Notes under the pieces: model-generated
Told to the model about the DNA's origin: nothing
Seen by the model: only the letters and a program-made list of their open reading frames with translations
The model's database searches: none
Shown: in pieces, positions 5,504 through 52,008 of the stretch
How positions within the stretch are numbered: position 1 is the first letter of the stretch
Layout of the letters: the number at the start of each line of letters is the position of its first letter
From: an uncultured Caldilineaceae bacterium
GTDB taxonomy: Bacteria; Chloroflexota; Anaerolineae; Caldilineales; Caldilineaceae
Direction: 5' to 3'
NCBI GenBank assembly: GCA_964427845.1
Contig: CAYRVP010000003.1
Coordinates: forward strand, 195 to 64,194
Length of the DNA stretch: 64,000 nt
Translations under genes and position numbers: made by a program

Positions 5504-7531
5504 ATGTTCTCACGCTTCAAACCCCAATCGCCCGCCGCCGATAGCGCCGGTGGCCGCTTTGAATGGCTCGAACTGCCAGACAGCGAGCCCGAGCGCACAT
5601 CCAGCAAGAAGGCAATTCGCACTGAGGCCGCACTGGGCAAACGTTGCCCCGACTGCAGTTGGCTCGATGACGAAACCGCGACGCGCTGTTTTCGCTGTGG
5701 CTACCGCTACAACGTGGACCAGGCCATGACTTCGCGCTTCAGCGACATGGGCATTGTCCTGCCGCCGCGCGTCATCGAAGCGCCGCAGAATCTGGAAAAC
5801 TTCTTTCGCATCAATGGGCGCATCCGCCCCGCGGAGCCGCTCGACGTCTACCAGTTGCGCTTGCAGGCGGAGGCCCTGCGCTTGAGCCGCGGCTTCGACC
5901 AGCTCCTCTGCCTCGATGAATTGGCCGTCGAACACTACGAGCACCAGATTGACGCCGCGCTGCGCGCCCTGCGCGATATGCGCGGGCGCGCCCTCCTCGC
6001 CGACGAAGTGGGGCTCGGCAAGACAATTGAGGCCGGCATCGTCATGAAAGAGCTCATCGTGCGCGGGTTGGTGCGCACCGTGCTCGTGCTTACGCCTGCC
6101 TCGCTCACCGAGCAGTGGCGCGAGGAACTCTCCGAGAAGTTCCACGAAGAGTTCACCGTCCTGGACCGCTCGAATGACTGGAAAGCACTGCAGGATGTGG
6201 AGGAAGGGCGCTGGATTGTCAGCCTGGACCGCGCCAAACTCAAGAAGTACGCGGACCCCATCCTGGCACGCGAGTACGACCTGCTCATCGTCGACGAGGC
6301 GCACAAACTCAAGAACCGCAACACGCTGGCGTGGCAATTCGTCAATCAGTTGCGCAAGCGCTACGTGCTCATGCTCACCGCCACGCCCGTACAAAATGAC
6401 CTGCTCGAACTTTACAGTCTGGTGACCATCCTCACGCCCGGCCAGTTGGGCACGGTGCGCGCCTTCCGTCGCCATTTTCTCGTACAATCCGACGTGCGCC
6501 AGCCCAAGAACTCGGGCACGCTGCGCCGCCTGCTCAACGATGTGATGATCCGCAACCGGCGCAGCAAGGTGGACATCACCTTCCCGCGCCGCCGCGCCGC
6601 CATTGTCCACCTGGACCTGAGCGAGCGCGAGTGGGAGCTCTACGCCGACGTCACCGACTACATTCGCCGCCGCTTTCGCGATGTGGACAGCAACAAGTCG
6701 CTACGCCTTACGTTGATTACGCTGCAAAAGGAGCTTTCCAGCAGCCCGCAGGCGCTGGCTTCCACCCTGCGCAAGATGACCGCCGACCGTGAGCATGGCG
6801 ACAGCGTGCGCGCCGAGCTGCAGCGCTTCCTTGCCCTGGCCGAGTCCATCGACACCGGGCGCAAATTGCTGGCCGTGCGCGACATCCTGATGACCTATCC
6901 CGGCAAGTTCCTGATATTCACCGAGTATCGCGAAACCCTGGAGGCGATTCTCGACCACCTGCGTGGCTGGGAGATTTCCTGCGTGGGTTTCCACGGTGGG
7001 CTCAGCATCCACCAGAAGGAAGCTGCCGTTGCTGCCTTCCGCGGCGATGTGGATGCCGAGGCAGGCGAGGATGACGACGAACCGGGCGTGCGTGTGATGG
7101 TAAGCACGGAGAGCGGCGCCGAAGGGCGCAATCTCCAGTTCTGCCATCAGCTCATCAACTATGATTTGCCCTGGAACCCCATGCGTGTGGAGCAGCGCAT
7201 CGGCCGCCTGCACCGCCTCGGGCAGGTGCATGAGGTGACCATCTACAACCTCTCCTGCAACGAGACCATCGAAGCGCACGTCATTGATCTGCTCGCCCGC
7301 AAGATTCGCATGTTTGAGCTCGTCATCGGTGAACTCGACCTGATCCTGGGCAGCATTGAGGGCGACAAGTCATTCGAGGATTTGCTGCGCGAGGCGTGGG
7401 AGACCGCCACCAGCGAGGCGGACCTGCGCAGACGCGTCGAAGATCTGGGTGACCTGCTCAGCCGCGCGCGTGAGCGCTACGATACCGTGCGCTCCAACAA
7501 CGAGCGGCTCGACTCGGCGCTCGAATCATAG
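5504..7531 (+). CDS. SNF2-family helicase/translocase (RapA/HepA-like) with N-terminal zinc ribbon
   Basis: CPDC...CFRCG ribbon, helicase motif I LADEVGLGKT, motif II LLIVDEAHKLKN, TATPVQN. The C-terminal helicase lobe has GAEGRNLQ and QRIGRLHRLGQ. Confidence 0.85.
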   Translation: MFSRFKPQSPAADSAGGRFEWLELPDSEPERTSSKKAIRTEAALGKRCPDCSWLDDETATRCFRCGYRYNVDQAMTSRFSDMGIVLPPRVIEAPQNLENFFRINGRIRPAEPLDVYQLRLQAEALRLSRGFDQLLCLDELAVEHYEHQIDAALRALRDMRGRALLADEVGLGKTIEAGIVMKELIVRGLVRTVLVLTPASLTEQWREELSEKFHEEFTVLDRSNDWKALQDVEEGRWIVSLDRAKLKKYADPILAREYDLLIVDEAHKLKNRNTLAWQFVNQLRKRYVLMLTATPVQNDLLELYSLVTILTPGQLGTVRAFRRHFLVQSDVRQPKNSGTLRRLLNDVMIRNRRSKVDITFPRRRAAIVHLDLSEREWELYADVTDYIRRRFRDVDSNKSLRLTLITLQKELSSSPQALASTLRKMTADREHGDSVRAELQRFLALAESIDTGRKLLAVRDILMTYPGKFLIFTEYRETLEAILDHLRGWEISCVGFHGGLSIHQKEAAVAAFRGDVDAEAGEDDDEPGVRVMVSTESGAEGRNLQFCHQLINYDLPWNPMRVEQRIGRLHRLGQVHEVTIYNLSCNETIEAHVIDLLARKIRMFELVIGELDLILGSIEGDKSFEDLLREAWETATSEADLRRRVEDLGDLLSRARERYDTVRSNNERLDSALES

Positions 7532-7611
7532 GCGCCGCCCGTGGCCAACGCTCAACGCAATCGCTCCTTCGCCAAGTCCGCACCAGCGTCGGCCACGGGC
7601 CGGCGCCTACC
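7528..7611. repeat. Inverted REP-like doublet (A/G)TAG-GCGCCG(G)CCCGTGGCC; the left TAG is the SNF2 stop codon
   Basis: ATAGGCGCCGCCCGTGGCC (7528..7546) and the reverse complement of 7591..7611, GTAGGCGCCGGCCCGTGGCC, are separated by 44 nt. They form a 16-bp stem with one bulge. Confidence 0.7.
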
Positions 7612-7639: not shown

Positions 7640-8314
7640 ATGAGCGAAATCAGCGATACCGATCTGCGCGCCCGCCACTTCATCATCACCGAGCTGGCCG
7701 AAACGGGCCGCGCACCCATGCTCGAAGATGTCGCCATCGAGTTGGGCCTGCGCATGGATGCGCTGCGCGCCACGCTGCAGCGGCTGCATGATGCACACCT
7801 CCTCGTGCTGAGCGGCGACGGCACGCTGTTGATGATCCACCCCTTCTCGAATGTGCCTACGGGCTTCCGCGTCACCAGCGGAGGCACGGGTTATGACGCT
7901 AACTGCGCGTGGGATGCACTGGGCATTCTGGCCGCGCTGCGGCGGGACGGCGTCGCCTCGGCACAGGTGCCCGGTGAGCAGGGCAAGTTCCGCTGCCAGG
8001 TGCGCGACGGGCAGCTTGAGGCAGAGGAAGCCGTTGTGCACTTCCCGTTGCCGCTGCGCCAATGGTACGACGATATTGTTTACACCTGAGCGAACATCCT
8101 GCTCTTCCGGTCGGAAGAGGCTGCAAGTGCATGGTGCGCGGCGCGCGGAATGGCGCAGGGCGCGGTGCTGCCGCTGACCCAGGTGTGGGCGCTGGCGCAG
8201 GCATGGTATGGCAGCCGCCTGGACGCCGGCTATAGCGGCCGGTCGGCCGGCGATGTCGAGTCCATCCTCGCAGGCGTGGGCCTCAATGGCCCCTTCTGGC
8301 GCTTCGCCTCCTAA
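7640..8314 (+). CDS. MerB-like (organomercurial/alkylmercury lyase family) protein with in-frame TGA at codon 150; candidate selenoprotein (alternative: nonsense pseudogene)
   Basis: The 225-codon frame is interrupted only by TGA at 8087..8089. NCAWDAL matches the MerB C96-x-x-D99 motif. The downstream in-frame ANILLFRSEEAASAW...AVLPLTQVWALAQAW matches MerB CHVHFFASVPTAEDW...AIVSVHEAFGLGQEF. The TGA aligns with MerB Cys159. Confidence 0.7.
8102..8119 (+). promoter_or_regulatory. SECIS-like hairpin CUCUUCC-GGUC-GGAAGAG, 12 nt downstream of the in-frame UGA
   Basis: Perfect 7-bp stem with a GGUC tetraloop. Loop sequence and spacing resemble the apical part of the E. coli fdhF SECIS. Confidence 0.5.
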
Positions 8315-8483
8315 CGACAATAAGCCTCGACGCAAAGGCGCAGAAACGCAAAGGAGCGTAAAGAAAAGCAGGGACAAGGAAAAGCACCAAGTCAATGACC
8401 TGGTTATTCCTTGTCCCTGCTTTTCTTTGCGCTCCTTTGCGTTTCTGCGCCTTTGCGTCGAGGCTTGTTGTCGTTAGGAGGCG
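8305..8483. repeat. 179-bp palindrome (77-nt arms, 25-nt loop) spanning stop to stop between convergent genes
   Basis: Arms 8305..8381 and 8407..8483 differ at 2 positions (both T/C, G:U-compatible). Both arms contain GCC TCC TAA, so each flanking gene ends in Ala-Ser-stop encoded by the palindrome. Confidence 0.9.
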
Positions 8484-9265
8484 CCCACCATCAGGCTCAC
8501 CAGTTCGTCACCGTTGGTGTCCCCGGCCATCAGGTCACCCACCTTCTGGCCGCGCCGCATGACGATGATGCGGTCGGCCACCGCAAACACATCCTGCATG
8601 TTGTGGCTAATGATGATCACCGGCACACCCTGTTCGCGCAGCGTCAGCACCAGCTCCTGCACCTTGCGCTGCTCGGGCACACCCAGCGCGGCCGTCGGCT
8701 CGTCCATAATCACAAGTTGCGCGTTCCAGTAAACGGCGCGTGCAATTGCCACCGCCTGCCGCTGGCCGCCCGACATCTGGCGAATCGGGCGCTGCAAGTT
8801 GGGGATGACGATGTCCAGGCGATCGAGCACCTTGAGCGACTCGTCATTCATGCGCTTGCGGTCGACCTGGTTGAAAATCCCCAGATATTTGCGCATGGGC
8901 TCGCGGCCCAGGAAGATGTTGACTGTTGCATCCAGGTTCTCGCACAACGCGAGGTCCTGGTAAATCGTCTCGATGCCCAGTTCGCGCGCCTCCATGGGCG
9001 AGGCCATGGTGATCTCGCGCCCGCTCAGGAAAATCTTGCCATCGTCAGGTTTGTAGACGCCCGAAATCATCTTGATCAGCGTTGACTTGCCGGCGCCGTT
9101 GTCACCAACCAGCCCAAGCACCTCGCCGCGATACATGTCAAAACTTACGTCATCCACGGCAACCAGGCCGCCAAAGCGTTTGACCAGGTGCTCGGCATGT
9201 AGAATCATCTCGCCCCTGTGCTGAGGCGTCACGCGTGTGGAATCATCAATGCGTACGTCACTCAT
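8474..9265 (-). CDS. Sugar ABC transporter ATP-binding protein (single NBD)
   Basis: Walker A GDNGAGKST, signature MSGGQRQ, Walker B LVIMDEPT. GGGAGG lies 6 nt before the ATG. Confidence 0.85.
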   Translation of the reverse strand: MSDVRIDDSTRVTPQHRGEMILHAEHLVKRFGGLVAVDDVSFDMYRGEVLGLVGDNGAGKSTLIKMISGVYKPDDGKIFLSGREITMASPMEARELGIETIYQDLALCENLDATVNIFLGREPMRKYLGIFNQVDRKRMNDESLKVLDRLDIVIPNLQRPIRQMSGGQRQAVAIARAVYWNAQLVIMDEPTAALGVPEQRKVQELVLTLREQGVPVIIISHNMQDVFAVADRIIVMRRGQKVGDLMAGDTNGDELVSLMVGAS

Positions 9266-9278
9266 ATGCGCCTCCCGG

Positions 9279-10367
9279 CTAGCGAGCCAGCTTCTCGCGC
9301 GCCTGGTCGATCAGGACGGCGACAATGATGACGACACCCACGGAAATGAACTGCCAGTAGGGATCTACACGCGTGATGACGAGACCGTTGTTCAGCACGG
9401 CGATGATCAGCGCGCCGATGAAGGTGCCAATCACGGTGCCCGAGCCGCCAAAGAGGGACGCTCCTCCAATCACCACCGCAGCCACCGTGTCGAGCACCAT
9501 AGACTCGCCAGAGTTCGCCGCGCCATTGGTGAAGCGGACGTTGTAGACAAGCCCCGCCAGCGCCGCCATGGTGGCCGACAACATATAGATGAATATGGTT
9601 GTGCGCGCCACAGGGATGCCTGCGCGCAGCGCTGCCTCCTTGTTGCCGCCAATCGCATAGGTGTGCAGACCAAAGCGCGAGCGCGAAAGCACGAGGTGCA
9701 TGATGACAAGCGCAATCACCATCACGATCAACACATAGGGCAGAATATTGATGACGGCCCGCATCTGCGCCTGCTCCAAGCCTGTAAAGCGCTCGAAGAA
9801 GACGTATCCTTTTTCGGGCAGGTATTGCGCCACGTAGCCGTTGCCCAGTTCACCGATGCCGCGCACACGTACAGGTACAGGCAGCCCGCCCGAAAGCAGG
9901 AAGCCCACGCCGCGCGCAATGCCGAACATGCCCAGCGTGGCAATGAAGGGGGGCACATTCAGCTTGGCAACCAGCAGGCCATTGACCAGACCCGCGCCCC
10001 AGGCGGCCACCAGGCCGACAGCCGAGCCGGCCAGCACAATCACCAACATGGAGGTGCCGGGCGCAAAGTAATTCATGACAATGGCTGACACGACGGAGAC
10101 CATGCCCATGATCCAGCCCGCCGAGAGGTCAATGCCGCCCGAGATAATGACATAGGTCTGACCGATCGCAATGATCGTCAGAATGGACATGTTGGCCAGA
10201 ATGTTCTGGAAATTGGCGAGCGAAAAGAATGCAGTGCCGCCCGTCATGCTGAAGGTAATGATCAGCAGGGCGAGAAAGAGCCAGGCCCATATGGAGCTGA
10301 GCACTTCGAGGAAGGATCGTCTTGAGGCGGGAGGAGCCTCAGTCTGAGTCGTTGCAAGGGTTGCCAT
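9279..10367 (-). CDS. Sugar ABC transporter permease (RbsC/branched-sugar type)
   Basis: Polytopic membrane protein, operonic between the NBD and SBP genes. Start set at ATG 10367 (MATLATTQ...); the ORF is open to 10508. Confidence 0.8.
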   Translation of the reverse strand: MATLATTQTEAPPASRRSFLEVLSSIWAWLFLALLIITFSMTGGTAFFSLANFQNILANMSILTIIAIGQTYVIISGGIDLSAGWIMGMVSVVSAIVMNYFAPGTSMLVIVLAGSAVGLVAAWGAGLVNGLLVAKLNVPPFIATLGMFGIARGVGFLLSGGLPVPVRVRGIGELGNGYVAQYLPEKGYVFFERFTGLEQAQMRAVINILPYVLIVMVIALVIMHLVLSRSRFGLHTYAIGGNKEAALRAGIPVARTTIFIYMLSATMAALAGLVYNVRFTNGAANSGESMVLDTVAAVVIGGASLFGGSGTVIGTFIGALIIAVLNNGLVITRVDPYWQFISVGVVIIVAVLIDQAREKLAR

Positions 10368-10516
10368 GCGTGAGGTTTCCTGGACTTCGGCGAAGCGGTC
10401 GCACGTGCATGCGTCACCGAACAGCGCGCAGCGTGGCCGTATGGATGCGCAGGGCGCGCATGATTTGGAGAAGCGGGTGGGGAGCGATTGTGACCGCTCC
10501 CCACCCATGGACTCAA

Positions 10517-11827: not shown

Positions 11828-11979
11828 CGACACAGAGATACTGTGCTTAAAGTCACAGAGGTAACGGAGAAACACAGAGAACAGCAACTGCGCAAATGTT
11901 TCCTCGCAGTTGCTGTTCTCTGTGTTTCTCCGTACCCTCTGTGATCTCTGTGTCGTAGTTCGCTCTGTGTCGTAGTTCG
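11828..11979. repeat. Long imperfect palindrome (purine-rich arm CGGAGAAACACAGAGAACAGCAACTGCG) followed by a perfect 17-nt tandem duplication
   Basis: Inner arms 11865..11892 and 11905..11932 are perfect. Outer arms CGACACAGAGAT (11828..11839) and ATCTCTGTGTCG (11944..11955) pair, with a 14-nt insertion in the left arm. CTCTGTGTCGTAGTTCG occurs twice in tandem (11946..11962, 11963..11979). Confidence 0.85.
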
Positions 11980-18039: not shown

Positions 18040-20661
18040 ATGAGCGATCCATCGATGCCATCCTACACTGCCGATGCTCAAACCAGCCAAGCCACAGCCT
18101 CCCCTCAGGAGAGCGGCGCACCGTCCCCGGTGCAGGCTGGCCCGCACCCCGCATCAAGCCCTGCGCCGGGGTTGCGCCCCACCGTTGCCTACGTTTCCAG
18201 TGAGTCCGACCCGCACAGCCTGGGCACACGCGTCGTGGAGCCACCTGCCGAAACCAGGCAGGCGGTGCGCGGCAGCCTCTACGCCGTCGTCGAACTGAGC
18301 GGCAGCCCCGCACCGACCGATGTGACCGAGCGGCTGCTGAGTTTGCTGCAGCGCACCTACTACACAGCGCGCGGCAGCCAGTCGGCAGTGCTGAGCGAAG
18401 CTGTGCGCAGTGCTATGGGTGTGGTGCGTGAGCACAACGCACACAACCCCACCGCGCAGCTGCGCGTCTCGCTCAGCTGCGCCACCCTGGTCAACCAGAG
18501 GCTGCTGCTGGCCTGTTGCGGTGCGGCCTTTGCCATGCTGCGCTCGGGAGAGCGCATTGAGCTTTACCCGAACCAGCCCGACAAGGCGCTGCCGGCCAAC
18601 CCCGACGAGATGGACGCGATTGAGGTGCTCAAGTGGGAGATGGCGGCGAACGACGTTGCGTTGCTCTGCGGGCCGGGGTGGAGCGACAGGCTGCCCGTCA
18701 AGACGCTGGCTGCAACTGTCTACTACGTCACGGTCGACACGGTGGAAGACGCCGCCGAAGGGCTGCGCGAACAGGCGGGCGGCTCGGCAGGACCGGGGCT
18801 GCTGCTCGTCATGCAGCCGGCGCTGCCACCGCCGCCGCCTCGTCCGGCAACTCCCCTGACTGCGCCGCGCCGCAACGCACCTGCAGGGCTGACCACGTCG
18901 CTCTCCGCGCCGCCACCCGTAACATCCCCTGCCGCGCCCTTCACGCCGCCGCAGCTCGAAACCGAACTATCAAGCGACATTCCGGCCTTTCTGCGTCGCA
19001 GCGACATGGCCGCCGGCCTCTCACTTGAAGCGCCGTCTGCGCCGCTGGACAGCGACACTGCCACCCACTTTGAGCCGTTTCCCGTACTGGCTATGCAAGG
19101 CGCCGGCGATACGCTGGACGCGGCGCAATTTGGCGAAGGTGCATCCGGCGAGGACGAGGGCGATAAAGCGCCGTCGGCCACCGACCGCATTGTGATTGGT
19201 GCGAAGGAGGGGGCTGACCGTGCACGCTCCTTCTTCCGCCAGATGCTGCCCGAGAAGCGTACGGCCAATCCCGCCGACTTCGAGCTGCTCGAAGACGAAG
19301 AGAGCGCACACGCGCCAGATGTGCCCGCCATGGCCGACGCGACCGGCGCTGCATCTGTGCCGCGCAGCGGTGCTGCGACATCCGTGGCCGCGTCTGCGCA
19401 CCTTTCCTCGACCGCGTATGTCGGCGACCTAGCCCCCTTCGAACCGCCTGCGCCCGCTACGGGCAGCCGCGCGCGCCTCTTCATCACATTGGCAATCCTC
19501 GTGGCGCTGCTCGTCCCGGTCACCGTCGCCGCGTACAACTGGCGCATCGGCGCGATGAATCGCGAAGAGGCCGAGATGCTCGTTTCGCTGGCGCAGGCGC
19601 GCATCCTCAACGCACAGGACTCGCTCAACACCAACGATATGCGTAGCGCGCTCGATCTGGCGAGTGAAGCGCAGGACTACATCGACCGCTCGATCGAGCT
19701 CATCGGCCCCACCGACGCATCCAACGATCTGGGCGGCAAGGTGCGCTCCATCGAGCAGGAAGCCGCCAACACCAGACTGCTTTACGGCCTTGCATCGCCC
19801 CTCATCGTTTTCCCCGAGGGCGCTGCGCCGACACGCCTGCTGGTTGTGGATCAGGACATCTACGTGCTTGATCCCGGCCGCGGCCTCGTGGAGCGCTATC
19901 GCGTAGATGATTCGCAGGAGCAACTGGAGACCCCCGATGGCGTGCCCGTGCTGACCACCGGCCAGTCGCTCGGTGGTGCGATCGTGGGCGAGCTCATCGA
20001 CATGGCCTGGCAGCCGGTGGTGCCCGGCTATGATGACAAGGCCACGCTCCTCGTCCTTGACTCCAACAACCAGATCTACCGTTACGACCCAGTCGTGGAA
20101 GGCCCGTCGCGACTGGACATGGGTGGCGCCGCGGACTTCAAGTCCATCCGCCAGTTGGAGACTTTTGGCCGCCGCCTCTACCTGGCGGATGCCGGGCGCG
20201 GCCAGGTGCTGCGTTACCCCGAGGGTCTCTACGGCGAGGAACCGACCGACTGGTTCGCCGCGCCGGTCAACCTGGATGACATGAAGACCATGCGCATCGA
20301 CGGCGACCTCTGGATCATGCTCAAGAACGGGCAGATTCTGCGCTTCTTTGGCGGTGAGCAGCTCTCCTTCTCGCTTGACAATAGCGTGGGCCTCGTGCGC
20401 GAACCTGTGGATTTCACGATTGGCGACGGCACAAACCCCGACATCTACGTGGCTGACCGCGGCGGCGAACGCGTGTGGGTCTTCGATCGCGACGGCCGCT
20501 ACATCAAGCAGTTTGCTGCGCCCGAGGGCAACCCGCTGCGCGGCCTCAGCGCCATCGGCATTGAGGACGTGACGGACTCTCTCTACCTCATGACCCCGAC
20601 TGCGCTCTACAAGCACACACTGCCTCAGGACGACGCGCCGGAAACAACCACCACCGACTAA
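18040..20661 (+). CDS. Large membrane protein: N-terminal globular domain (degenerate PP2C-like?), Pro/Ala-rich linker, one TM helix, C-terminal beta-propeller-like repeats
   Basis: TM segment LFITLAILVALLVPVTVAAY. The C-terminal half has repeated IYVLD..G.V.RY / LYLAD.GRGQVLRY / IYVADRGGERVWVF blades. The N-terminal domain lacks the PP2C metal-binding Asp residues. Confidence 0.55.
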   Translation: MSDPSMPSYTADAQTSQATASPQESGAPSPVQAGPHPASSPAPGLRPTVAYVSSESDPHSLGTRVVEPPAETRQAVRGSLYAVVELSGSPAPTDVTERLLSLLQRTYYTARGSQSAVLSEAVRSAMGVVREHNAHNPTAQLRVSLSCATLVNQRLLLACCGAAFAMLRSGERIELYPNQPDKALPANPDEMDAIEVLKWEMAANDVALLCGPGWSDRLPVKTLAATVYYVTVDTVEDAAEGLREQAGGSAGPGLLLVMQPALPPPPPRPATPLTAPRRNAPAGLTTSLSAPPPVTSPAAPFTPPQLETELSSDIPAFLRRSDMAAGLSLEAPSAPLDSDTATHFEPFPVLAMQGAGDTLDAAQFGEGASGEDEGDKAPSATDRIVIGAKEGADRARSFFRQMLPEKRTANPADFELLEDEESAHAPDVPAMADATGAASVPRSGAATSVAASAHLSSTAYVGDLAPFEPPAPATGSRARLFITLAILVALLVPVTVAAYNWRIGAMNREEAEMLVSLAQARILNAQDSLNTNDMRSALDLASEAQDYIDRSIELIGPTDASNDLGGKVRSIEQEAANTRLLYGLASPLIVFPEGAAPTRLLVVDQDIYVLDPGRGLVERYRVDDSQEQLETPDGVPVLTTGQSLGGAIVGELIDMAWQPVVPGYDDKATLLVLDSNNQIYRYDPVVEGPSRLDMGGAADFKSIRQLETFGRRLYLADAGRGQVLRYPEGLYGEEPTDWFAAPVNLDDMKTMRIDGDLWIMLKNGQILRFFGGEQLSFSLDNSVGLVREPVDFTIGDGTNPDIYVADRGGERVWVFDRDGRYIKQFAAPEGNPLRGLSAIGIEDVTDSLYLMTPTALYKHTLPQDDAPETTTTD

Positions 20662-20692
20662 GTGTTGCATCCTGCAAGTACGTCGCGGATTC

Positions 20693-20716
20693 GTAGCGGC
20701 GGCTTCAGCCGCCGTT
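20693..20716 (+). repeat. REP-like hairpin GTAG-CGGCGGC-TTCA-GCCGCCG-TT
   Basis: Lies 32 nt after the stop of the 18040..20661 gene, nested inside a larger imperfect inverted repeat (GTTGCATCCTGC 20664..20675 / GCAGGATGCAGC 20785..20796). Same sequence family as 43078..43152. Confidence 0.75.
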
Positions 20717-21003
20717 CGTCTTTGTCACGGTGCAATTGGTCAGTACGGCAGCTAAAGCAGTCGCTACGAAAGACCGTCTCACTCGCAGGATGCAGCATTT
20801 AGTTGAAGTCACGATGGAGTTGGGAACTACAACCCAACGGCGCAAGTTGCGGGAAGTGGTGGTCCGCTGAAAGTGGACCAAAATCAGACTGGCAGTAGGC
20901 ATTTCGCCCATATTTGCTGCGAGCCCTGGCGTCCCGACGCGCCGCTCGTGCGCTACCTCCTGTATCGGCGCACCGCCAACGGCCACGCGCCGCCGCTGCG
21001 CGT

Positions 21004-23497: not shown

Positions 23498-23611
23498 CGG
23501 TCAAATTCCAGTACGCAGAAACAGCGGAAAAAGCGGAAACAACATGAAGCAACCAGTGCTCTTCATGTTGTTTCCGCTTTTTCCGCTGTTTCTGCGTACT
23601 GGAATTTACCG
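23498..23611. repeat. 114-bp palindrome (52/51-nt arms, 11-nt loop) filling the whole stop-to-stop gap
   Basis: CGGTCAAATTCCAGTACGCAGAAACAGCGGAAAAAGCGGAAACAACATGAAG (23498..23549) pairs with 23561..23611, with a single 1-nt indel. TAG stops abut both ends (23495..23497 plus strand; 23613..23615 minus strand). Confidence 0.9.
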
Positions 23612-42769: not shown

Positions 42770-43077
42770 GCAGCACTATCCTGTCACTCGACATCGCGCC
42801 CACACCGCACAACATGCTCAGGGTGGAGAAGCCTCGCGGCAAATCGATGGTTCGCCCACAGGCAGCGAGCCAGTCAACACATCTCCTGCAGTCATCTTAC
42901 ACGTCCGGCACGCGCACGTCAAGGAGGCGACACAGCGGCGCATTTCACTCTTGTGTCGTGACGAGATGCAAGCTGGTCCCCTTCCGGAACACCGGAGACG
43001 GGCGCAGCACAATTGCGCCATGCCCCAGACTTGACCTGCCAAGCCATTCGTGCGGCACGCAAGATTGCGCACATCTC

Positions 43078-43152
43078 GTAACGGCGGCTTGAGCCGCCGT
43101 TTTCATCCAGCGCCGCGGCATTGGTGAGAACGGCGGCTTAAGCCGCCGCTAC
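43078..43152. repeat. REPIN-like inverted pair of REP hairpins: GTAA-CGGCGGC-TTGA-GCCGCCG and (complement) GTAG-CGGCGGC-TTAA-GCCGCCG
   Basis: REP1 43078..43101 on the plus strand and REP2 43129..43152 on the minus strand, with a 27-nt spacer. Each has a 5' GTAR tetranucleotide followed by a GC-rich palindrome. Confidence 0.8.
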
Positions 43153-43202
43153 GATTTCGCTGTGAACTTGCGAGACGAATCACTTTGTGGCGTCGACACA
43201 AG

Positions 43203-45631: not shown

Positions 45632-46615
45632 ATGACACAACCCATTCGTGTTGCCGTCACCGGCGCCGCAGGCAATATTGGTTACGCGCTGCTCTTCCGC
45701 ATTGCCAATGGCGACCTCTTTGGCCCCGATCAGCCCGTCATTCTGCAAATGCTTGAAATCACGCCCGCCATGCAGGCGTTCAATGGTGTGGCCATGGAAC
45801 TCGATGACTGCGCCTTCCCGCTGCTCAAGGGTATGGTCCTGAGTGATGTCCCTGAGGTGGCCTTCAGCGGCGTCAACTGGGCGCTGCTCGTGGGCGCACG
45901 ACCCCGCTCGAAGGGGATGGAGCGCAAGGATCTGCTGGGCGCAAACGCAGCCATCTTCAGCGTTCAGGGCAAGGCGCTCAACACCAGCGCCGCCGCTGAC
46001 CTGCGCGTGCTCGTTGTCGGAAACCCTGCCAACACCAACGCGCTGATTGCCATGAAGAATGCGCCTGACGTTCCCGCGGAGCGCTTTACGGCGATGACTC
46101 GCCTCGACCATAACCGCGCCAAGGCGCAATTGGCCAGCAAGGCCGGTGTGCCGCTGACCGACGTCGCCAAGGTGACGATTTGGGGCAACCATAGCGCGAC
46201 GCAATACCCCGACGCCTACCATGCCGAGATTGGCGGCAAACCCGCCGCCGCGGTCATCAATGACGACGCCTGGATTCGCAGCAGCTTCATCCCCACCGTG
46301 CAGAAGCGCGGTGCGGCGATCATTGAGGCGCGCGGTCAGAGCAGCGCAGCCAGCGCGGCCAATGCCGCCATCAACCACGTGCAGACCTGGCACAAAGGCA
46401 CACCAGCCGGCGACTGGGTGAGCATGGGTATCCCCAGCACAGGCCAGTACGGCTCGCCCGAAGGCGTCATCTTCTCCTACCCAGTCACCGTCAGGAACGG
46501 CGTCATCTCGGTGGTTGATGGCCTGGCACTGAGCGGCTTCGACAAGGAAATGATCGCCGCCACCGGCGCTGAACTGCTCGAGGAGCGCGACGGCGTGGCC
46601 GAGATGCTGGGGTGA
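45632..46615 (+). CDS. mdh: Malate dehydrogenase (NAD-dependent)
   Basis: [49 protein letters not shown] lies before the ATG. Confidence 0.9.
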
Positions 46616-46890
46616 CGGCGGGATGACCGGTTGACTGGTAGACTGGGTGACTGGTTGACTTGTGGACTAGTTGACTGGTTGACTGGTGGACTGAGAAGAC
46701 TACGCGATAGCGGCGCCCAGTGCTCAGTGCATGGCGCCGCTATCGCGTAGTCTATTCAGTCCACCAGTCCACCAGTCCACCAGTCAACCAGTCAACCAGT
46801 CAACCAGTCCACCAGTCAACCAGTCCACCAGTCAACCAGTCCACCAGTCAACCAGTCAACTAGTCCACCAGCCCCCCAGTCATCCCGCCG
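46616..46890. repeat. 275-bp palindromic element with 8-nt microsatellite arms (GTTGACTG/GTGGACTG and CAGTCAAC/CAGTCCAC) around a 21-bp perfect stem
   Basis: Central stem 46697..46717 / 46733..46753 with a 15-nt loop. The right arm has about 14 octamer units and the left about 9. Termini CGGCGGGATGAC(C/T)GG abut the mdh TGA and the ppk TAA directly. Confidence 0.9.
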
Positions 46891-49170
<2,280 letters not shown>

Positions 49171-51926: not shown

Positions 51927-52008
51927 GTAGCGGAAGGCCTCCCGGCCTTTACTTTGGTGGCCGCGCATTCCGACGCCGCAAAGTAAAGGCCGGGAGGCCT
52001 TCCGCTAC
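51927..52008. repeat. REPIN-like perfect inverted repeat GTAGCGGAAGGCCTCCCGGCCTTTACTTTG (30-nt arms, 22-nt loop)
   Basis: Arms 51927..51956 and 51979..52008 are perfectly complementary. GTAG/CTAC sit at the outer ends. Lies between convergent genes. Confidence 0.9.

Follow-up and report, generated by a model that had tools for sequence, protein, structure and literature searches.

The 179-bp palindrome at positions 8305–8483 of the window (the 64,000-nt stretch of DNA analysed here, which is part of contig C3 of genome G000) is probably a resident member of a family of long, lineage-specific hairpins, located at gene 3′ ends with the purine-rich arm first, whose arms would be kept complementary at the DNA level, which would have overwritten the end of the neighbouring MerB-like gene, and which likely work as terminators. 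Genome comparisons suggest that the family is found mostly between convergent genes and in one subclade of a single genus of Caldilineaceae (Chloroflexota). Long perfect palindromes are usually held to be unstable and rare in bacteria, and here hundreds of them persist at their sites from species to species even as their sequence changes.

A repeat finder places the palindrome between two convergent genes (Table 1) and recovers two arms of 77 nt each, 97% complementary, just as the sequence-only reading had described them; they pair at 75 of 77 positions across a spacer of 25 nt. The RNA of either strand folds at about -167 kcal/mol (z of about -24), and none of 200 shuffled sequences was as stable. 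The two mismatches of the arms, T8321/G8467 and T8359/G8429, had been regarded as G:U-compatible in RNA, which holds for the plus-strand transcript of the MerB-like gene but not for the minus-strand ABC transcript, where both become A.C. According to BLASTN searches against the own genome, the outer 20 nt of each arm, with the codons and stops inside them, are peculiar to this locus, outside the core shared by the family, and the palindromic symmetry thus runs 20 nt past that core on each side, into both ORFs. At the centre, an inner GC-rich stem of 14 bp (8368–8381/8407–8420) is followed on either strand by TTTTCTTT, an arrangement missed by a simple terminator scanner, which accepts loops of no more than 8 nt. 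The arms show a loose periodicity, CGCA recurring every 8–10 nt, and Tandem Repeats Finder reported no array within 8290–8500, so this copy is not classed as a microsatellite palindrome. An Rfam search of the palindrome gave no family at the gathering threshold; the sub-threshold matches were solely plant and animal microRNA-precursor models, which any long hairpin gives, and were discarded.

Table 1. Features of the palindrome and its two flanking genes (window positions)
Feature	Position	Strand	Evidence or remark
MerB-like gene, 224 codons, with in-frame TGA 8087–8089 (candidate selenocysteine)	7640..8314	+	
Purine-rich left arm (69% purine); its first 10 nt close the MerB-like ORF	8305..8381		Repeat finder, composition
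MerB-like final two codons and stop: GCC TCC TAA, Ala-Ser-stop	8306..8314	+	Ser-stop derived; mirrors ABC end
Core homologous to other CGCAAAG-type copies, starting CCTCGACGCAAAGG	8325..8463		BLASTN (query ~21–159) and arm alignments
Terminator-like core: 14-bp stem GCAGGGACAAGGAA/TTCCTTGTCCCTGC, then TTTTCTTTG (plus) and TTTTCTTTA (minus)	8368..8429		Read from the sequence; putative function
Central spacer, 25 nt, itself a quasi-palindrome CCAAGTCA-A-TGACCTGG	8382..8406		
Pyrimidine-rich right arm; its last 10 nt, read on the other strand, close the ABC ATPase ORF	8407..8483		Repeat finder
ABC ATPase final two codons and stop: GCC TCC TAA, Ala-Ser-stop	8474..8482	-	Ancestral at protein level
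ABC transporter ATPase, final gene of its importer operon	8474..9265	-	Pfam ABC_tran 2e-32

The permease of the ABC importer operon follows at 9279–10508. The two genes do end in the same codons within the arm tips, as had been noticed, and in the case of the MerB-like frame this requires a read-through, since the frame opened at 7640 reaches GCC TCC TAA only if its TGA codon is decoded. Such a read-through is a reasonable assumption, because the Pfam MerB match (residues 69–191) crosses the TGA codon, the orthologue in the congeneric genome G004 has TGT (Cys) at that position, and a selB gene is found in the genome above the curated cut-off.

The two identical ends have different histories. 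The ABC ATPase terminates in Gly-Ala-Ser-stop in genomes G000, G002, G005, G001 and G004, as well as in L007, which belongs to another genus and keeps this ending without any palindrome, and in Gly-Val-Ser-stop in the metagenomic contig L082; the Ala-Ser-stop of this gene is ancestral. MerB-like proteins end in FAS (G000), FTS (G002), FAAD (G005), FADN (G001), FAV (G004) and FENEP (L082), and more distant homologues show other short tails after a conserved GxxGxFW motif. An (A/T)S-stop is seen only in the two closest genomes, G000 and G002, and the C-terminus of the MerB-like protein is the derived one. Since the ABC end is ancestral and the MerB-like tail is variable, the MerB-like Ser-stop was most likely copied as a mirror image from the ABC end, a direction also preferred because the reverse would need a prior, fortuitous Ala-Ser-stop on the MerB-like tail. 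The sequence-only reading had proposed that the element captured or replaced both gene 3′ ends, which is not supported: the ABC ending is kept in L007 and in four congeners whose palindromes are unrelated, so one gene end was rewritten and not both. An Ala-Ser end without any palindrome, which that reading had named as a refutation, is seen for the ABC protein but not for the MerB-like one. In short, the palindrome appears to have changed the final residues of the MerB-like gene, a side effect or cost of such elements being that the facing gene can impose its mirror image on a neighbour's tail and stop.

Similar gene ends occur elsewhere in the genome. At 19 of 93 convergent hairpin loci both stops are equidistant from the axis, against a permutation mean of 2.5 (maximum of 10 in 5000 permutations), and at about nine loci the stops, sometimes with codons, lie within the arms. 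Mirrored ends between Pfam-confirmed genes were found at C152 (both Gly-Gln-stop), C54 (Arg-Pro-stop) and C13:43692 (Glu-stop), and another candidate with five shared codons, at C31:33662, was left out as an artefact of the home-made ORF caller. Moreover, TAA accounts for 44% of the stops beside hairpins, compared with 22% genome-wide. When the C152 locus was compared in relatives, no clean donor and recipient emerged: G005 has there a hairpin of only 12 bp, yet both of its genes end in Leu-Gly-Gln-stop, so shared ends are not always later than the long palindrome, and in G004 the YceG gene runs about 25 codons into the hairpin. In any case, the hairpins clearly reshape gene tails.

The genome of the window (4.45 Mb in 270 contigs, 63.5% G+C) comes from a short-read metagenome assembly. 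The suspicion that the palindrome belongs to a dispersed element was confirmed by genome-wide BLASTN, which detected related palindromes on dozens of its contigs and in five related genomes, so that the sequence is not unique. Our own k-mer and extension scan (pairing of at least 85%) gave at least 429 hairpins with stems of at least 25 bp genome-wide, 263 of them purine-first, 16 pyrimidine-first and 150 mixed, and among stems of at least 40 bp the purine-first order prevails by 144 to 1. A palindrome gives the same reading from either strand, which makes the arm order intrinsic to the element, and any transcript arriving from either side meets first the purine arm and the loop, and then a 3′ arm with 45% U, 30% C and 7% A. 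Several sequence flavours coexist: the CGCAAAG-type to which the 8305–8483 copy belongs, the CACAGAG-type, the CGGAAA-type, GACTGGTG octamers, and TTGATGA and GGGNAGT heptamers. Two other sites of the window, at about 11865 and 23515, had been thought to resemble the arms described here; the likeness is one of architecture, both being purine-first palindromes, and not of sequence, since they belong to other sub-families.

With genes called by a home-made codon-usage caller (3011 genes, 82% coding), hairpins are present in 134 of 357 convergent gaps (38%), as compared to 164 of 2077 tandem gaps (8%) and 22 of 307 divergent ones (7%). Within tandem gaps they lie at a median of 16 nt from the upstream stop versus 47 nt from the downstream start, and in convergent gaps the stop and the arm are separated by a median of about 12 nt. 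Family motifs appear at 14% of the contig ends against 1% of random 80-mers, which indicates that the hairpin counts are underestimates; these hairpins break short-read assemblies and can mislead gene callers at 3′ ends. The best paralogue of the 8305–8483 copy is about 90% identical over 54–58 nt, and copies at non-orthologous sites are 85–90% alike. The same genome harbours a true MITE of 225 bp (13 copies, 97–98% identity) whose body is a similar hairpin, as well as a Y1_Tnp (RAYT-like) gene (G000 C42:13393–13977) flanked by GTAGCGGGGGGCTTCCCAGCCCCCC arrays, which are GC-rich GTAG REPs.

Among related organisms, CGCAAAG-type sequence abounds in five of the six genomes of the genus and is hardly found in 35 further genomes from the family and class. 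Counted independently of sequence, long hairpins reach 21 per 100 kb in G004 (a 10-contig assembly with perfect stems of up to 110 bp), 9 in G000 and 5.5 in G001, versus 1.4, 0.7 and 0 per 100 kb outside the subclade (two other genera and another family). The order of the MerB-like and ABC genes is conserved in the relatives compared, and a hairpin is kept at their junction in five genomes despite sequence divergence: G002, with an ABC ATPase 95% identical, has a homologous palindrome, and G005, G001 and G004 each show a long palindrome of a sequence type other than that of G000. Contig L082, with the same gene order and a MerB-like protein 78% identical, has only an 18-bp GC-rich hairpin with a T-run, which would be an ordinary small terminator. 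A recent insertion finds no evidence in these comparisons, as all nine hairpin loci spanned by a contig of G002, the closest relative, carry an orthologous hairpin, with neither gain nor loss, while eight further loci examined coincide with G002 contig ends. A 1.5-kb difference beside one G002 hairpin was considered as an insertion sequence and discarded, as it corresponds to two ordinary genes. However, copies at non-orthologous sites are more alike than orthologous sites of distant congeners, so evolution in situ alone is insufficient and, to judge from these identities, there must also be some dispersal or ectopic conversion over longer times.

The two arms evolve together. Between G000 and G002, the pairs of the 8305–8483 palindrome comprise 58 unchanged, 11 one-sided changes, five compensated doubles and no uncompensated one (hypergeometric P = 0.005), and the five doubles cluster within 19 nt. 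Over nine orthologous hairpins there are 279 unchanged, 37 one-sided, 18 compensated and three uncompensated pairs, where per-site divergence predicts 4.6 doubles (P = 2e-8); leaving out the most extreme locus, 12 are observed against 3.0 expected (P = 8e-5). Arms diverge at 11.7% per site versus 17.8% at four-fold degenerate sites of the flanking genes, and the 37 one-sided changes compare with about 99 expected at the four-fold-site rate, from which it follows that the arms are mildly constrained in sequence and strongly in complementarity. In terminators of Bacillus cereus, where selection operates on the RNA, the G:U pair is the favoured intermediate (PMC5381666). In tandem contexts of G000, the transition mismatches on the sense strand are 97 of the G:U type versus 102 of the A.C type, with no preference for G:U, so that the idea of G:U pairs as an RNA-level constraint fails genome-wide. 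This lack of bias argues that mismatches are removed by a process that acts on DNA and is blind to the difference between G:U and A.C. Moreover, the spacer at 8382–8406 is inverted in G002: the inverted alignment has 20 of 25 identical positions with a perfect run of 17 nt, while the direct one has 16 and needs gaps. Of the three other scorable spacers, those at C13:43692 and C31:29357 are inverted and the one at C13:42223 is direct, that is, three of four inverted in total, an orientation read from metagenome assemblies that should be anchored by arm mismatches no more than one k-mer away from the spacer and from one another. Template switching at inverted repeats is a known way of creating stems, repairing them and flipping spacers (PMC8794818, PMC8604942), and the homogenised arms together with the inverted spacers constitute its described signature (PMC8604942, PMC8794818). 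Altogether, co-evolution, spacer flips and the lack of G:U bias point to a DNA-level arm-to-arm conversion rather than to RNA-level selection, and the absence of that bias and the spacer flips make the family a natural data set in which arm conversion in DNA can be separated from compensatory selection on RNA.

A likely pathway can be proposed from these data. Arm complementarity would be held by template switching within the palindrome during replication, or by arm-to-arm recombination or repair, and not by selection acting on individual RNA base pairs. The same process would have pushed the symmetry outward in the common ancestor of G000 and G002, so that the reverse complement of the ABC ...GCC TCC TAA would have been copied onto the unconstrained tail of the MerB-like gene, leaving both proteins with an Ala-Ser end. 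The resulting element would act as a bidirectional transcription terminator and 3′-end hairpin, which is the most likely function of the palindrome. Such a role is suggested because several features fit it: the location behind stop codons, the scarcity in divergent gaps, the GC-rich core and the purine-first order; with the purine arm first, U-rich sequence lies 3′ of every nested stem. Hairpins as a stand-in for a lost Rho factor can be rejected, since Rho was found in every genome of the subclade. A second Rho-like paralogue is absent from the five hairpin-rich genomes, and 15 of 20 other members of the family carry one, but its loss would be a single evolutionary event and is only a lead. 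As for the tolerance of such long palindromes, canonical SbcD is missing, or represented only by a sub-threshold relative, across the family Caldilineaceae; its loss was rejected as the cause because the same state is common to genera without hairpins, and it would be at most permissive.

Other explanations of the palindrome have to be considered. It could be a mobile miniature element of the MITE or REP kind, inserted between the genes, which brought terminal stops and replaced both gene ends. The dispersal of the family on dozens of contigs within one lineage would agree with this, as would the similar hairpin body of the true 225-bp MITE in the same genome, the closer likeness of non-orthologous copies than of orthologous sites in distant congeners, and the enrichment of TAA beside hairpins. 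However, the codons and stops lie in the locus-specific outer 20 nt of each arm, outside the family core, and the ABC ending is ancestral; copies are at most about 90% identical, their ends vary, and a listing of 148 elements shows, on plain inspection, no visible target-site duplication or direct repeat at the arm ends. Moreover, G000 and G002 both have a hairpin at each of the nine loci open to comparison, with no presence/absence polymorphism at a neutral divergence of 18%, and the RAYT-like transposase adjoins GC-rich GTAG REPs instead of purine-first hairpins, all of which makes a mobile element unlikely. Somewhat less likely still is an ordinary bidirectional intrinsic terminator under RNA-level compensatory selection, whose identical gene ends would result from coincidence or codon convergence. 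The location after two convergent stops, the GC-rich core stem followed by T-runs and the compensated changes, as described for B. cereus terminators (PMC5381666), are those of a terminator, but the sense strand has no G:U excess, the double changes are clustered, the spacers are inverted, the 77-bp arms far exceed what termination needs, and a 10-nt identity that extends an otherwise perfect palindrome is not a matter of chance. Other genera of the family manage without such hairpins, and L082 has an 18-bp hairpin at the very same site. The opinion expressed in the sequence-only reading, that this is more than an ordinary terminator, is therefore supported.

A structural site in the DNA, either a cruciform or an array of CGCAAAG-like protein-binding motifs, could also serve in chromosome organisation, replication or recombination, with the position at gene ends reflecting mere tolerance. 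The loose periodicity of the arms, an arm-order bias that is identical on both strands and maintenance signals at the DNA level would all be expected of it, and the lack of canonical SbcD in Caldilineaceae might permit long palindromes. Nevertheless, no candidate binding protein was found, the purine-first order has a ready explanation at the RNA level in the U-rich 3′ side, the hairpins stay near stops and avoid the divergent gaps where promoters lie, and the divergent SbcD state is shared with genera that have no hairpins, so we regard such a site as improbable. A fold-back artefact of the assembly might be feared from the short-read metagenomic source and from the family motifs at 14% of contig ends, yet four assemblies made independently, two of them near-complete (7 and 10 contigs), show homologous or analogous palindromes at this site, which leaves this explanation with a negligible probability.

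Returning to the resident, DNA-maintained hairpin family as the preferred reading, a bolder version of it may be put forward, although we hold it as rather doubtful: self-homogenising 'flip-flop' palindromes would have replaced ordinary terminators at about one third of the convergent junctions, growing outward until coding selection stops them and routinely rewriting C-termini and stops. This process may be linked to the loss of the second Rho-like paralogue in the same lineage. If true, flip-flop palindromes would represent a systematic, structure-driven route of protein C-terminus evolution.

Regarding known systems, the palindrome resembles bidirectional intrinsic terminators in its location between convergent stops and in being the same on both strands, with a GC-rich stem whose A-rich 5′ and U-rich 3′ flanks are able to pair; a GC-rich stem-loop followed by a U-rich tract is present on both strands, as bidirectional terminators have it. 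However, intrinsic terminators have stems of about 5–15 bp and loops of 3–8 nt, so that arms of 77 bp (up to 110 bp in a congener) and a spacer of 25 nt fall far outside the canonical size, and, unlike them, the palindrome belongs to a dispersed sequence family, enters both ORFs and shows no G:U bias. MITE identity is not demonstrable for the family, with copies at most about 90% alike, variable ends and no presence/absence polymorphism. The palindromic elements of Rickettsia and the Correia elements of Neisseria are MITE-like insertions with defined ends that can add codons, terminate transcription or be substrates of RNase III, whereas neither insertion polymorphism nor defined ends were found for the hairpin family.

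REP, BIME and REPIN sequences (PMC3733652) are, like the hairpins, abundant, intergenic, palindromic, lineage-specific, often located at 3′ ends and grouped in fuzzy families. REPs span 20–40 bp and have an unpaired GTAG/CGTC head, the GTAG type being associated with a RAYT transposase (PMC3733652), whereas the hairpin elements measure 100–230 bp, are purine-first and lack an unpaired tag; the GACG/CGTC of the 179-bp palindrome lies within the paired stem. An association with REP/RAYT was rejected, as the RAYT-like gene is flanked by the other, GC-rich GTAG REP. On the side of mechanisms, quasipalindrome correction and template-switch mutation (PMC8794818, PMC8604942, PMC5941160) share with our loci multi-base compensated changes, spacer inversion and altered coding sequence where it overlaps an arm, and arm-to-arm gene conversion in large palindromes (PMC1803023) shares the homogenised arms, but those are processes and not elements, and here the process is deduced from the comparison of two genomes.

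The closest published class is that of the inverted heptamer-array pairs of Xanthomonas (PMC4692102). In Xanthomonas and Nostoc, inverted pairs of perfect or near-perfect G-rich heptamer arrays are able to form stem-loops, and such pairs are over-represented in non-coding DNA close to stop codons (Rehm et al. 2015, PMC4692102). As a separate observation, the hairpins at 46609–46891 of the window, built of GACTGGTG octamers, fit this class well (PMC4692102). The 8305–8483 palindrome differs from it in lacking a true tandem array and the GGG tracts needed for quadruplexes, its arms being A/G-rich instead of G-rich, and agrees with it in having two convergent arms in non-coding DNA near stop codons (PMC4692102). 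In any case, the element is a poorly characterised kind of bacterial palindromic 3′-end repeat.

The origin of the 179-bp palindrome that separates the convergent MerB-like and ABC ATPase genes (8305-8483) can be approached through L082, a metagenomic contig of a palindrome-free relative. In this contig, ACAACAAAGCC precedes a short terminator (L082 2240-2300), and the palindromes of both the source genome (G000) and its closest relative (G002) carry ACAA(C/T)AAGCC in their outer arms, right before the family core (8325-8463). Therefore, the long palindrome may have arisen inside an ancestral small terminator, or by displacing its centre.

The window contains additional long palindromes of sub-families other than that of the main one, as well as GC-rich REP-like doublets (see the table). 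In the case of the palindrome at 11853, comparison with the G002 orthologue revealed 8 compensated doubles, in which both bases of an arm pair have changed and pairing is kept, and only 1 single change. For the palindrome at 23503, TAG provides the stop of both flanking genes, and the two stops are equidistant from the axis. A further example of a C-terminus reshaped by a hairpin is the YceG orthologue of the congener G004 (contig C10, locus L085), whose usual stop is gone, so that the frame runs about 25 codons into the adjoining hairpin and ends in ...ARVPRRVGKQIKYAKRNETTVHRFHRCDR-stop. Gene content can also differ immediately beside a hairpin: two extra genes of G002 (C67; L078 1415-2769), absent from G000, adjoin the orthologue of the hairpin at C13:31521, and correspond to a zinc-finger glycosylase-like ORF of 276 aa and a flavodoxin-like ORF of 158 aa.

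Coordinates of the features in the window
Feature	Positions	Part of
REP-like doublet, GC-rich	7528-7611	
REP-like doublet, GC-rich	20657-20803	
REP-like doublet, GC-rich	43053-43177	
Additional long palindrome	11853-11944	
Additional long palindrome	23503-23607	
Additional long palindrome	46609-46891	
Additional long palindrome	2229-2342	
Additional long palindrome	51927-52008	
MerB-like gene	7640-8314	
In-frame TGA	8087-8089	MerB-like gene
Hairpin	8102-8119	MerB-like gene
tRNA	110-181	
tRNA	198-280	

The in-frame TGA of the MerB-like gene falls at the site of the MerB catalytic Cys pair and is followed, 12 nt 3′, by the hairpin CUCUUCC-GGUC-GGAAGAG. This codon is retained in G002 and the congener G001, Cys occupies its position in G004 and P0001, and many database homologues have an annotated length of 136-155 aa, that is, ending at the TGA. 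selB was found in the genome carrying this gene. The local RNA fold around the TGA showed no greater stability than shuffled sequences. The MerB-like protein is a candidate selenoprotein. A whole-window Rfam scan at the gathering threshold returned only the two tRNAs, with no match for an RNase P RNA at 375-887.

SbcD and Rho were surveyed in whole genomes (G000-G040). Canonical SbcD scored above the cut-off in the other families of the class, its place being taken in all Caldilineaceae by a sub-threshold relative. A single Rho occurs in each of the five genomes rich in hairpins, and none of these carries the second Rho-like paralogue present in 15 of 20 other family members.

Outside the window, G000 harbours a true MITE of 225 bp with termini CTAAACCGA...TCAGTTTAG, present in 13 copies that are 97-98% identical (C14:29095-29320 and 12 other contigs). 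A CAACGCAAGG-type hairpin with the purine arm first makes up the body of this MITE. The same genome encodes a RAYT-like Y1-transposase (C42:13393-13977, L030) with GTAGCGGGGGGCTTCCCAGCCCCCC repeat arrays on either side of the gene, which is the classical REPtron layout.
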